Below, piece after piece: positions 29,207-32,528 of a DNA stretch of 64,000 nt. The translations under genes were made by a program, and so were the position numbers. Under the pieces are notes generated by a model. The model ran no database searches. It worked only from the letters and a program-made list of their open reading frames with translations, and was not told the origin of the DNA. This DNA is from Bacteroidota bacterium (GTDB taxonomy: Bacteria > Bacteroidota > Bacteroidia > NS11-12g > UBA9320): contig CANIKO010000016.1 in the NCBI GenBank assembly GCA_947468275.1, positions 7,346 through 71,345 on the forward strand, given 5' to 3'. The first letter of the stretch is position 1. The number at the start of each line of letters is the position of its first letter.

Positions 29207-30781
29207 ATGAAATATTTTCTTTTATTCATTGCATTGTATTCGTGCACCTTATCATTTGCCCAATATCCAATCGTAACTATTGATAACCAAACCTACGGGC
29301 CAAACGAACCTTCCATTTATATCAATCCTGCTAACCCAACCCAAATAGTAGCCGGAAGTAATATTAACAACCATTATGTTTCGTCCGATACAGGCAAAAC
29401 CTGGGAGATTAAAACACTGCGTTCAAGCCTTGGTGTGTATGGCGACCCGGTGATTTATGCCGATGAATATGGCAATTTTTATTTCTGCCACCTTGCTGCT
29501 ACTAAAACCAAACATTACCCCGATTGGATTGACAGAATTGTGGTTCAAAAAAGCGATGATGGGGGTAAGAGTTTTAATGACGGAAGTTTTGCCGGACTGA
29601 ATGGTGATAAGGAGCAAGACAAACACTGGATTGTAAAAGACCAACACAGTTTGTTGCACAAAGACAACATCTATTTGAGCTGGACGGAGTTTGACAATTA
29701 CGATAGCAAAGACCCGAAAGACCATTCCCGAATACAATTTGCACGCTCGGTGGATGGTGCTGCCAGTTTTGAGCAAGCCATTACCATAAGCGATACCGTT
29801 GGGGATTGTTTGGATGATGATAATACATTGGAAGGAGCCACCGCTGCTATTGGAAAAAATGGGGAAGTATATGTGGCATGGGCTGGATATGGAAAAATTT
29901 ATTTTGATAAATCATTGGATGGTGGCCGCACTTGGGGAAAAGACCGGTTAATATCCACACAAGATGATGGCTGGGCTTTGGATTTTGACCAAATATACCG
30001 AAGCAACGGATTGCCTTTTTTAGTAGCCGACCACAGCCGGGGAAAATACAAAAACCGTTTGTATTTGCTTTGGGGCGAAAGCCTTCCGGGCATTGGTGGT
30101 GAAATAAAACTAAAATATACCGACAATGGGGGCGATAGTTGGAGTGATGAAATTACGGTAAACTCTAGTTCGGTTGGCGACCAATTTCTGCCCCATATTG
30201 CCATCGACCAAATCGACGGAACAGTATATGTAGTTTTTTACGACCGAAGGAATTCAGCTTCCAATTTACTGATGGATGTGTATGTTTCCTTTAGTGAAGA
30301 TGGCGGTCAAACGTTTACCAATAAATTAATTACACCTCAGCCTTTTTTGCCTCCTGGCAAAGAGGTGTTCTTTGGTGATTACAATGGTATTTCAGCCCAC
30401 AGAGGAATTGTGCGGCCTATTTGGACCGCCACCGACGAAAGCCTTCAAGGTAAACTTATGATACAAACGGCGTTGCTTAATAAAGACCTGTTAAAAAGTA
30501 AAAACCAAACTTTGGCTGATACCATTCTTTACAAATTTTATCAAACTGCCAATGAAAATATGTTTGTCATCTACTCCAGCAAAATGGTGGAGTATTCCTT
30601 AAAAATAAAGGTTAAAAAAAATAAATTTTCCCTGTTTGGTAAAACCTATAAAAAACATGGAGTAATCAAACCTCAAGACATAGACAAAACGATTATTTTA
30701 AAAGGTGGAAAAGGCAAAAAGGTGGATTACAGAATGAAGTTGAAAGGGAAGGGTTTTGAGGTTAATTATTCCAGTAAGTAG
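29207..30781 (+). CDS. Secreted BNR/Asp-box repeat (sialidase-like) protein
   Basis: Signal peptide; repeated SxDxGxTW/F boxes (SSDTGKTW, SDDGGKSF, SLDGGRTW, SEDGGQTF); FFGDY. Confidence 0.8.
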   Translation: MKYFLLFIALYSCTLSFAQYPIVTIDNQTYGPNEPSIYINPANPTQIVAGSNINNHYVSSDTGKTWEIKTLRSSLGVYGDPVIYADEYGNFYFCHLAATKTKHYPDWIDRIVVQKSDDGGKSFNDGSFAGLNGDKEQDKHWIVKDQHSLLHKDNIYLSWTEFDNYDSKDPKDHSRIQFARSVDGAASFEQAITISDTVGDCLDDDNTLEGATAAIGKNGEVYVAWAGYGKIYFDKSLDGGRTWGKDRLISTQDDGWALDFDQIYRSNGLPFLVADHSRGKYKNRLYLLWGESLPGIGGEIKLKYTDNGGDSWSDEITVNSSSVGDQFLPHIAIDQIDGTVYVVFYDRRNSASNLLMDVYVSFSEDGGQTFTNKLITPQPFLPPGKEVFFGDYNGISAHRGIVRPIWTATDESLQGKLMIQTALLNKDLLKSKNQTLADTILYKFYQTANENMFVIYSSKMVEYSLKIKVKKNKFSLFGKTYKKHGVIKPQDIDKTIILKGGKGKKVDYRMKLKGKGFEVNYSSK

Positions 30782-31234
30782 TCTGAACTATGATTTTTTT
30801 GATTAAATGATATCTTATGATAAAGGAAGAATATAAATATTCGGCATTAACTTCCAAAATTATTGGATGTGCAATGACAGTTCATAAAACTTTAGGCAAT
30901 GGATTTCAAGAAGTTATTTACCAACGTGCCTTAAGAATTGAGATGAGTATTGCGGGAATTCCCTTTCAAAGAGAATTTGAAATGCCAATTTTTTATATGG
31001 GGGAACAGATTGGAACAAGAAGGGTTGATTTTTTGATAGAAGGAACTATTTCTTTAGAGTTAAAAGCAATTACAAAATTGGAAGATGTTCATTTTGCACA
31101 AGCCATAAATTATCTAGAAGCGTATAATTTAGAGATTGGTTTGCTTATCAATTTCGGGGAAACAAGTCTAAATTTCAAACGACTCACTAACAAAAAATTC
31201 AAATCATCCTAATCAAAAAAATCATAGTTCAGAC
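30781..31234. mobile_element. Putative 454-bp minimal element: 25-bp perfect terminal inverted repeats around the GxxExxY gene
   Basis: 30781-30805 gtctgaactatgatttttttgatta is the exact reverse complement of 31210-31234 taatcaaaaaaatcatagttcagac; mobility is inferred. Confidence 0.6.
30817..31212 (+). CDS. GxxExxY protein (PD-(D/E)xK nuclease-like)
   Basis: VHKTLGNGFQEVIYQ (GxxExxY), RVDFLIE...LELKA (D...ExK), AQAINYL, GLLINFG. Confidence 0.93.
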   Translation: MIKEEYKYSALTSKIIGCAMTVHKTLGNGFQEVIYQRALRIEMSIAGIPFQREFEMPIFYMGEQIGTRRVDFLIEGTISLELKAITKLEDVHFAQAINYLEAYNLEIGLLINFGETSLNFKRLTNKKFKSS

Positions 31235-31244
31235 ATTATCCCCC

Positions 31245-32528
31245 CTACTTCATCAGCATCCACTTAAACAACTGTTTGTAAGTTGGTTTTTTGCCCATCA
31301 TCAATATTCCTACTTTGTAAATTCGTCCGGCAAGCCAGGTAAATAAAATAAAGGTTAGAACCAAAGTAATCATGGATACAGCCAGCTCCCAACCTGGTGG
31401 GTCAAACGGCAAACGAACCATCATAATAATGGGTGATGTTAAGGGAAATAAGGACATAAACGTAGCCATAGAACCATGAGGATCGGAAGCCAATATAGAA
31501 AAACTGGTAGCAAAACTTATGATTAACGGCAAAGTAACCGGTAACATAAATTGTTGCGTATCCGATTCGCTGTCAACGGCTGAACCAATGGCCGCAAACA
31601 TAGAACTGTAAAGCAAATAACCAAACAAAAAGTAGAAAACAAAAATGGCGATATAGAAACTAAAGTTCAGATTAAAGAAAGCTTCTAAAATCGGGTTCAT
31701 GGCTTGTATTTGGTTTCCGGCCTGTGGAAGATTATGGGGAACACTGCCAATTTGCGAAGCAAAAAAGATGGAAATAATGCCTGTTAAAATTCCGCTGAGC
31801 GCTATCCAAATTAAAAACTGGGTAAGTCCAACCATGGCTATTCCTAATATTTTACCCATCATGAGCTGAAATGGTTTTACTGATGAAATAATAATTTCAA
31901 CTATCCGGTTGGTTTTTTCTTCCATCACACCCCGCATTACCTGAACGCCGTATAAAAAGATGAAAAAATAAATAATGAAGGCAAAGGCAGCCCCAAGTCC
32001 AAAATTTAATTCAGCCTGAGAGCTTAACAAATCGCCCGTTTCACTTATTTCTAAGGTTTTCATTTGAACCTCCATTTTCAAACTGTCCAAAAACGATTGC
32101 CTCACGCCTTTTTGCATCAGCTTTTGGTTTTTGCCTGAGGCCTCAACAGCATTGGTTAATTTACCTTGCAAATCAAGCGTGGCCGATTCGGTGGATTTAA
32201 AAACAATTTCTTTAGGATTATCTAAAGTAAAATCCTTGGGAATTATCATCCACCCAAAAATATCCTTTCCAAGTGTTGTGGTATCATTTTCGGTATATAT
32301 AAACTCAACTTTTGAAGGATTTTCCAAATGATTCTTGAACAAACCGCTACTATCAACCACCGCAATGGTTCTGGTTTTTTCACCCGTTTTTTGGTTTACT
32401 GCCAATCCGATGATTACCCCGTAAAACAAGGCTATAAGCACCGGACCTAAAATGGTCATCACAATAAACGATTTTTTGGTAACACGGCTCAAGTACTCGC
32501 GTTTTGTAATCAACCAAATCTTATGCAT
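31245..32528 (-). CDS. ABC-2 type permease (NatB-like)
   Basis: KREYLSRV, EEKTNRIVEII, LMMGKILG, multiple TMs. Confidence 0.9.
   Translation of the reverse strand: MHKIWLITKREYLSRVTKKSFIVMTILGPVLIALFYGVIIGLAVNQKTGEKTRTIAVVDSSGLFKNHLENPSKVEFIYTENDTTTLGKDIFGWMIIPKDFTLDNPKEIVFKSTESATLDLQGKLTNAVEASGKNQKLMQKGVRQSFLDSLKMEVQMKTLEISETGDLLSSQAELNFGLGAAFAFIIYFFIFLYGVQVMRGVMEEKTNRIVEIIISSVKPFQLMMGKILGIAMVGLTQFLIWIALSGILTGIISIFFASQIGSVPHNLPQAGNQIQAMNPILEAFFNLNFSFYIAIFVFYFLFGYLLYSSMFAAIGSAVDSESDTQQFMLPVTLPLIISFATSFSILASDPHGSMATFMSLFPLTSPIIMMVRLPFDPPGWELAVSMITLVLTFILFTWLAGRIYKVGILMMGKKPTYKQLFKWMLMK

Follow-up and report, generated by a model that had tools for sequence, protein, structure and literature searches.

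Several bacterial elements resemble the one studied here. The intervening sequences (IVSs) of 23S rRNA, for which the protein family PF05635 is named, are the closest; the Correia/NEMIS and ERIC elements are intergenic hairpin elements, similar to miniature inverted-repeat transposable elements (MITEs), that are processed as RNA; and transposases associated with repetitive extragenic palindromes (REPs) are known for an inverted-repeat layout with small palindromes. Here we analyze a 454-bp cassette, a single gene of the GxxExxY family between perfect inverted arms, in a 64,000-nucleotide stretch of the genome of a lake bacterium of the Bacteroidota (assembly GCA_947468275.1, contig CANIKO010000016.1, positions 7,346 to 71,345), hereafter the window. 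We argue that the cassette belongs to a widespread, horizontally spreading group of promoter-less, IVS-like selfish cassettes whose arms would form a stem of the RNase III type, a reading that we regard as about an even call.

ORF-bearing IVSs of 23S rRNA occur in Coxiella, Leptospira and other bacteria, and the IVS of Coxiella provides the most useful comparison. In the parts of that account drawn on here (PMC4990558), the IVS is 428 nt long and bears an ORF (open reading frame) that is decaying; tandem heptamers, variable in number between strains, lie just 5' of the ATG, and the 5' cut by RNase III falls at the first repeat. The same parts describe its distribution as sporadic and apparently horizontal. 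For the family of the cassette protein, PF13366, the portion used here of a 2012 survey of PD-(D/E)XK proteins lists the function as unknown.

Results

The two arms of the window cassette are complementary at 25 of 25 positions and lie 404 nt apart (Table 1). At up to three mismatches the 25-mer occurs at only two places in the window, the arms themselves, and 0/100 dinucleotide shuffles of the window yielded two 25-mer matches; the pairing is real and beyond chance. The unit fits tightly to its surroundings: the first G of the left arm is the last base of the upstream gene's TAG, stop codons in this arm shut all three reading frames within 26 nt, the leader measures 36 nt, the ORF's TAA makes up bases 1-3 of the right arm, and the stop of the convergent gene lies 10 nt past that arm. 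An earlier note, made from the letters of this DNA alone, had described the perfect repeats, the unit with its short leader and 131-aa ORF, and the close fit between convergent stops, and its coordinates agree with ours throughout. It had also remarked that no target-site duplication was obvious, and none is visible at the ends of the window cassette or at the other loci inspected. The cassette has the terminal inverted repeats of classical insertion sequences (ISs) and MITEs, and it contains no transposase of a known IS or MITE family, PF13366 being the only family matched.

That this complementarity is due to chance, or marks a simple bidirectional terminator between convergent genes, is barely credible: convergent stops do flank the cassette and the arm has a T/A run, yet the shuffles, the 404-nt loop with a conserved gene and the recurrence of the trait in hundreds of homologues all speak against it, and terminator-like sites numbered 0 in our signal scan. 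The same scan, of the sigma-70 type and with Bacteroidota-type promoters outside its reach, found no promoter-like site inside the cassette 5' of the ATG. The sole plus-strand site 5' of the ATG (30740-30769) lies within the upstream gene, which is the likely source of read-through transcription; promoter-like sites numbered 5, against 4.3 expected from shuffles. A scan of 30300-31700 against Rfam, at E values up to 10, gave a single match at chance level.

Complementary flanks extend well beyond this locus. Scans of public metagenome and genome contigs each returned at least about 585 confirmed relatives, and we took 80 loci from each; the metagenome loci are 72-89% and the named-genome loci 69-88% identical to the window protein in amino acids (157 public loci, 69-89%). 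We scored flanks by gapped local alignment of the 150 nt upstream of a gene with the reverse complement of its 3' flank, with a threshold of at least 26. This score was reached by 21/47 distinct GxxExxY genes of relatives against 2/172 control positions shifted within the same loci, by 47/72 metagenome loci against 0/191 shifted positions, by 52/77 named-genome loci against 1/151, and by 5/114 ordinary 100-170 aa ORFs of the window's own genome, which are themselves a control; with related, non-independent sequences the ratios carry less statistical weight than they suggest, yet the effect is very large. GxxExxY genes in general are highly enriched for complementary flanks, which answers a question that the earlier note had raised, and the phenomenon is more general than the window alone could show.

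The distribution of the cassette is broad and patchy. At a cut-off of E <= 1e-25, close homologues were present in 24/191 genomes of the order; the best of them, at 85% amino acid identity, belong to another family, and congeners follow at 81%, 72% and 68%. The named public records span many Bacteroidota families, and other record titles read Cyanobacteria (one a complete chromosome), Synechococcales, Leptospiraceae, Verrucomicrobia, Akkermansia, Melioribacteraceae, Gracilibacteria, Poribacteria and Binatia, these records being mostly metagenome-assembled genomes in which individual taxon assignments may be wrong. The same termini were found in loci titled Cyanobacteria, Verrucomicrobia, Poribacteria and Gracilibacteria and in those of many Bacteroidota families. 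When ten sequences were aligned, cyanobacterial, verrucomicrobial and poribacterial loci included, similarity spanned GTCTGAAC to GTTCAGAC(A) and the flanks were unrelated. The cassette is shown to be a discrete unit, carried with its arms across families and phyla and polymorphic between relatives, and the sharp ends, the joint travel of arms and gene and the absence from the congeners described below uphold the earlier description of a cassette. Copies of the arm per genome elsewhere are few (2-11). We rejected carriage by phages or plasmids as the explanation for this spread, given that a phage collection held no homologue and plasmid homologues amounted to 8 records, mostly very large replicons.

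Comparison with close relatives places the insertion precisely. Among 10 congeners compared, 8 had both flanking genes on one fetched stretch; the GxxExxY gene was between them in 0/8, the flanks were otherwise syntenic, and the tail of the 530-aa upstream gene was conserved in all eight. The spacer was 35, 36, 90 or 105 bp in four of the eight, and the other four held unrelated inserts of 664, 1155, 1502 and 1877 bp. A junction that has a short spacer or another insert in eight congeners is a variable spot, and the cassette is lineage-specific; judged by these comparisons, it is an insertion specific to this species. The junction itself (30781/31245) is a hot spot, with four different inserts in four congeners (L064, L065, L066, L067) that carry a 306-aa putative lipoprotein, a 288-aa ORF, ORFs of 202 and 394 aa, and a 209-aa ORF. 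Search for a filled and a hairpin-only allele at one orthologous site (loci G006:C4 and G005:C24/G002:C30) gave no empty or hairpin-only allele among the 10 congeners. The window's own genome (3.3 Mb in 32 contigs, 99% complete) has one GxxExxY gene and, with three mismatches allowed, lacks the 25-mer outside the cassette; a looser motif scan also found no other arm there. With the 25-mer restricted to its two arms, there is no sign of spread within this genome; of the further copies that the earlier note had hoped to find, those in the own genome are lacking, while the termini recur in other genomes.

Metagenomes from lakes, for which the evidence consists of assembled contigs only, add further breakpoints. 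Sequence from one independent study spans both cassette junctions with zero differences. In a lineage of about 89% identity the cassette again occupies this site, its right arm having one additional 9-nt unit; among the differences listed for this lineage, the cassette interior may be less diverged than the flanks. One contig agrees with the window over 30002-30780, apart from 2 differences in 779 nt, and is unlike it thereafter. Presence and absence of the homing type is represented by 0/8 filled congeners and this one contig, with its near-identical upstream gene, that diverges at 30781; a clean empty allele from the same species was not recovered. Other contigs begin or end their match exactly at 30781, 31202/31203 or 31235, so those communities also have the arms in other contexts. 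In two lake metagenome runs contig depth was highest in the bin 31206-31272, and loose ends lay at 31202/31203 and 31235. We considered whether runs with word shares of 0.50-0.74 contained empty-site strains and rejected this, since contig fragmentation or lineage divergence accounted for the lower share. In 4 runs no joint across the cassette was reported, which is no evidence of absence. One metatranscriptome contig covers 30851-31163 with 8 differences, a weak hint of transcription in that DNA can be present in such libraries.

The protein has every appearance of a working enzyme. It matches PF13366 (PDDEXK_3; E 8.9e-38, 129.7 bits, cut-off 22) and TIGR04256, the GxxExxY family (E 1.1e-39, 135.3 bits, cut-off 35), and it has both the signature GxxExxY and the catalytic residues D...ExK that form the core of the PD-(D/E)XK fold. 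In an alignment of 50 members G29, Y35, D71, E81, G108, N112 and F113 are invariant and E32, K83, H92 and Y99 nearly so (E32, K83 and Y99 at >=90%), and Q95, which with Y99 makes the QxxxY motif, is present in the window protein; the family assignment and intact motifs given in the earlier note are borne out. An AlphaFold2 model has a mean pLDDT of 94.1, and its best Foldseek match in the PDB is weak (Cas4 SSO0001, 4ic1_B, E 9.2e-4, TM 0.57), followed by lambda exonuclease and the resolvase Hjc; a sequence search of the PDB with the window protein gave no match. By alignment and model, the protein looks like an active minimal PD-(D/E)XK nuclease, conserved and apparently functional.

The arms consist of runs of TGATT-type units, spaced by 8-9 nt, that follow an 8-nt terminus, and this terminus recurs in 29 cassettes in which the ORF lies between a left and a right arm. 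Under a strict motif definition this is the commonest layout (25/107 and 27/80 loci), with the left terminus often at -35/-36 and the right at +7 to +34. In another layout a whole hairpin without an ORF precedes the ORF, with a right arm after it, and tandem hairpin arrays and tandem copies of the ORF's 3' end with the right arm also occur. Distant GxxExxY subfamilies (25-40% identity) use other unit motifs, for example of GGATT, GAATT, CACGGAG, GCAAAG and CACTAAAA types, that are still inverted on both sides. Our collection of ORF-less hairpins that share these ends comprises 66 distinct examples, 82-160 nt long, in which the left half reaches the ATGA that opens the ORF in filled copies; they look as deletion derivatives would. 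One hairpin of a congener has a left arm identical to that of the window at 24/25 positions. Exact arm termini were present in 9/191 genomes of the order at 1-11 copies, compared with 0-1 per genome for a backward control pattern, and 6 of these 9 genomes have a close ORF and 3 do not.

Some loci show how these parts multiply. At L147 four copies of about 100 nt, each the ORF's 3' end plus the right arm, stand in tandem 3' of the ORF, and L168, L122 and L068 (G020:C54:1-460) together provide arrays in which ORF-less hairpins follow one another head to tail, three to five at a time, at periods of 74-105 nt. At L108 (G085:C24) a partial tandem duplication (218-310 and 706-805) lies directly 3' of a complete cassette; it consists of 21 nt from the 3' end of an hsdS-like gene, together with the left arm and ~45 nt from the start of the ORF. 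At L107 (G027:C2, ~2270-2322) right-arm-like AATCA units ending GTTCAGAC lie in frame within an 890-aa hsdM frame, where they are translated as a short low-complexity linker.

Cassettes are not placed at random with respect to their neighbors. Taking mechanical open frames of at least 100 codons as neighbors, the upstream frame is on the cassette strand in 65/69 loci and the downstream frame in 63/71, and 44/69 upstream frames end at -6 to +28 nt of the left terminus. Their ends fall into recurrent classes, one per reading frame, at +6 (13 loci, with the TGA inside GTCTGA), +13 (9) and +26/+28 (6), and left arms shut all three frames within 30 nt in 58/114 cases compared with 16/570 random 30-mers from the same loci. 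Since upstream ends cluster near the left terminus and the arms carry stops in three frames, the tight fit seen in the window is a property of the family; the element appears to land at or in the very end of a gene, with its arm ending that gene's translation. This strong orientation also bears on whether the arms could serve as a DNA inversion switch that flips the gene relative to a host promoter. Perfect 25-bp inverted repeats 404 bp apart could recombine, and restriction-modification loci often contain invertible segments, but the sense orientation in 65/69 loci, the lack of any reported inverted joint among contigs of the 4 runs and the lack of an associated recombinase gene render such a switch highly improbable.

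The neighbors themselves are often restriction-modification genes. Counted from our table, 39/76 named-genome loci have a restriction-modification family in a neighboring frame, mostly type I (HsdS, HsdM, HsdR and RhuM) and in some cases Eco57I, MmeI or type III-like; in one locus (G027:C2) the order is hsdM, hsdS, hairpin plus GxxExxY plus arm, rhuM, hsdR, arm, ygjP. The remaining loci are in housekeeping operons, such as those of leuD/leuB, moaA/moeA and liv permease genes. Individual cassettes lie between two DUF1761 genes (L283), two branched-chain amino-acid permease genes (L231), and leuD/leuB-like (L246) and moaA/moeA-like genes (L282). That cassettes stand between paired or operonic housekeeping genes indicates that insertion is tolerated in ordinary operons. 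One could take the GxxExxY gene to be an ordinary accessory gene of restriction-modification or defense operons and the arms to be independent intercistronic hairpin repeats, similar to ERIC, REP or Correia elements, that form no mobile pair with it. The 39/76 count agrees with this, as do solitary hairpins, hairpins in tandem arrays and hairpins that flank the ORF on either side, the arm-like stretch within one hsdM gene, and arms in genomes without a close ORF. We consider it unlikely, because the commonest architecture has the ORF inside one hairpin with arms at fixed distances, the unit of arms and ORF recurs in unrelated contexts (leuD/leuB, moaA/moeA, liv permease genes and the window site), and the window cassette is absent from 8 congeners with syntenic flanks.

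The bracket is shared by genes of other families. In 40 relatives, tandem motifs of 6-9 nt, arranged as inverted arms, enclose 21/24 PF05635 genes (controls, 0/96). The window's own genome has ten PF05635 matches, one of which has arms of ATTTGAAA repeats: a 120-aa gene (L296, G000:C5:161480-162170) with arms of tandem units at 161583-161601 and 162050-162068. A DUF559 gene of this genome is bracketed likewise (1 case). Here (L292, G000:C1:228300-228960, minus strand) the 126-aa ORF lies within a 29-nt inverted repeat, and no stop interrupts its frame across the arm and on to the beginning of a Sua5/TsaC-type gene; either the frame is fused, or the ORF was inserted in frame into a housekeeping gene at its 5' end. 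The same genome has three IS200-like Y1_Tnp genes (L293, L294 and L297, at G000:C1:166041-166688, C20:9138-9790 and C1:80012-80830), each flanked by long-range inverted repeats that hold small palindromes. Because GxxExxY, PF05635 and DUF559 are unrelated families with one kind of bracket, the bracket probably serves the cassette and not one enzyme. As RNA, the window cassette is predicted to fold with the 25-bp stem in both the minimum free energy and centroid structures (z -2.61), and the genome encodes RNase III. An RNA role is favored by the sense bias, the lack of a promoter signal, the stem in these folds, the RNase III gene and, above all, the IVS parallel.

The main competing explanation is an autonomous DNA element, whose nuclease would recognize the arm ends or a hairpin/cruciform and drive transposition or homing, with ORF-less hairpins as its non-autonomous derivatives or landing pads. 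In keeping with this, conservation across phyla is higher in the terminal 8-16 nt than in the ORF, the 66 ORF-less hairpins share the same ends and retain the left part up to the position of the ATG, and presence/absence breakpoints fall at the arm edges. The fold is nearest to those of Cas4, lambda exonuclease and Hjc, with invariant catalytic residues; distant subfamilies are bracketed despite their different arms; and close ORFs are more frequent among exact-terminus genomes (6/9) than overall (24/191), an excess that is partly trivial in that a cassette's own arms count. The earlier note had suggested that the protein may mobilize its own cassette, which our results do not show: the same bracket on non-nuclease PF05635 genes and on a DUF559 gene argues against a protein-specific mechanism. 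Nor is a target-site duplication seen, and copies within genomes are few and divergent, the window's own genome having one gene and no other arm. Three genomes have arms and no close ORF (G100, with 5 arm copies, G020 and G097; two of the three are incomplete), and a symmetric element with terminal inverted repeats has no need of a strong sense bias. Taking both sides together, we view the autonomous element as a possible but doubtful explanation.

Coordinates and the evidence for each feature of the cassette and its flanks are collected in Table 1. The earlier note had labeled the convergent gene natB and the upstream gene BNR. Both labels are borne out only in part. The convergent gene is a match to PF12698; for the second label no Pfam family matched the 530-aa protein, and its sole basis is a set of S-x-D-x-G-x-x-W/F motifs visible in the translation, which we take to be Asp-box-like.

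Table 1. Features of the cassette and flanking genes, in positions of the window.
Feature	Position	Strand	Basis or remark
Whole cassette	30781..31234	+	Arm search and ORF calling; sharp ends supported by alignment and metagenome contigs
Left inverted arm	30781..30805	+	Terminus GTCTGAAC, then TGATT-type units
Leader remainder before ATG	30806..30816	+	11 of 36 nt
GxxExxY ORF, 131 aa	30817..31212	+	PF13366 / TIGR04256 matches
Right inverted arm	31210..31234	+	Starts with the ORF's TAA, ends GTTCAGAC
Upstream host gene, 530 aa	29189..30781	+	Asp-box-like repeats; no Pfam family
Convergent host gene, 427 aa, ABC-2 family permease	31245..32528	-	PF12698 ABC2_membrane_3

Discussion

We propose that the window cassette is one of a family of selfish cassettes of ~450-500 bp, each with one GxxExxY gene and no recognizable promoter, and that in this species alone it was inserted right after the last codon of the upstream gene. 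Its RNA would be made by read-through transcription, and the arms would close into a 25-bp RNA stem with the ORF as the loop, as in ORF-bearing 23S rRNA IVSs. RNase III would then cut the stem, which might free or stabilize the cassette RNA and give the host message a defined end; with such an end, the insertion could come at a low cost to the host. As DNA, the most economical routes of movement would be to ride on mobile restriction-modification operons and to recombine through the repeated arms, with the putative GxxExxY nuclease as the prime candidate helper.

Several observations weigh against this proposal. About one third of close homologues have no clear bracket, and some ORFs sit between two ORF-less hairpins and not inside one. 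RNA ends, cleavage and strand-specific expression are not visible in the assembled contigs. At the window site the downstream gene is convergent, so that no operon continues past the right arm to be protected. Of 327 fetched loci, none overlapped 23S rRNA or resembled the 23S gene of the window's own genome, so that the likeness to rRNA IVSs suggested in the earlier note holds for the architecture, through the bracketed PF05635 genes and the heptamers that the cited parts of the Coxiella account describe, and not for the location. In the arms, position 10 is paired in only 13/29 cassettes of the close subfamily, each of whose arms has its own consensus and recurrent mismatches, and mismatches in imperfect arms are 13 of G-U type, 15 of A-C type and 62 others, with no bias to G-U. 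Fine co-variation of the arms, for which the earlier note had proposed a check, is weak within this subfamily; distant subfamilies have different units that are still inverted. Identity over the terminal 16 nt is 0.86-0.90 compared with 0.74 for the ORF in nucleotides, a comparison that is biased since the termini were used for selection. Conservation of this kind in the arms fits a site that a protein recognizes at least as well as it fits a simple stem.

A bolder version of the IVS-like reading would join GxxExxY cassettes, PF05635 copies outside rRNA and at least some DUF559 genes as "free-living intervening sequences", a large class so far undescribed. Its members would have a single cistron and no promoter and would live as parasites of operons, above all those for restriction-modification; their inverted arms of tandem repeats would end host translation in any frame, form an RNase III stem and serve as sites of homology or recognition for spread. 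The GxxExxY protein, as a structure-specific nuclease, would cut hairpin or arm DNA and so convert ORF-less hairpins to filled cassettes, a form of homing into hairpins. We offer this only tentatively and think it more probably wrong than right in so complete a form. GxxExxY genes and free-standing PF05635 relatives are among the commonest small genes without known function in Bacteroidota and Cyanobacteria, and a single architectural class, if true, would explain their number, their patchiness and their frequent location in restriction-modification operons. It would also tie the rRNA intervening sequences, long without an explanation, to a wider population of elements, make the conserved arm ends and stem a concrete handle for function, and place a unit of ~450 bp among the smallest gene-bearing mobile units known. 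We found no description of such a bracket for GxxExxY genes, or for PF05635 genes outside rRNA, in the openly searchable literature, subscription journals and curated family notes being outside the scope of that search, and a prior description may exist.

Among known systems, free-standing homing endonuclease genes resemble the cassette in that a small gene for a nuclease fold lies between conserved genes and appears to be present or absent among close relatives, but homing endonuclease genes lack inverted arms and ORF-less derivatives, and the cassette protein is not known to cut an empty site. Eukaryotic foldback transposons, which we bring in as an analogy only, likewise have long inverted arms of short tandem units and mostly non-coding copies, and differ in host domain, size and encoded protein. 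With the Correia, NEMIS and ERIC elements, the likeness lies in ORF-less elements of 82-160 nt with terminal inverted repeats, in transcribed intercistronic positions and in some tandem arrays; in contrast to them, the cassette shows no target-site duplication, and its full form has a gene for a nuclease fold and no known transposase. REPIN/RAYT systems also have a single-copy small gene between inverted repeat copies, along with ORF-less hairpin doublets, and the window's own genome has Y1_Tnp genes bracketed by inverted repeats, yet the cassette protein is not an HUH Y1 transposase and its arm is not dispersed in that genome.

The IVSs of 23S rRNA are the nearest match. They differ in that the cassette lies between two protein genes and not in a 23S helix, and in that its ORF has the PD-(D/E)XK fold (PF13366 only) and not the four-helix bundle of S23p/PF05635. 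The cassette ORF looks fully functional, whereas that of Coxiella is decaying according to the cited parts of its description; excision by RNase III is a feature of IVSs that, for the cassette, is proposed by analogy. On the other side stand a similar size (428 nt in Coxiella, 454 bp here) and one small ORF as the loop of a long stem formed by the termini, short tandem repeats that vary in number and lie near the ORF start inside that stem, and a sporadic, horizontal-looking distribution, as far as the same parts of the Coxiella account describe them. To these we add that, in related genomes, the PF05635 genes are themselves bracketed outside rRNA too.

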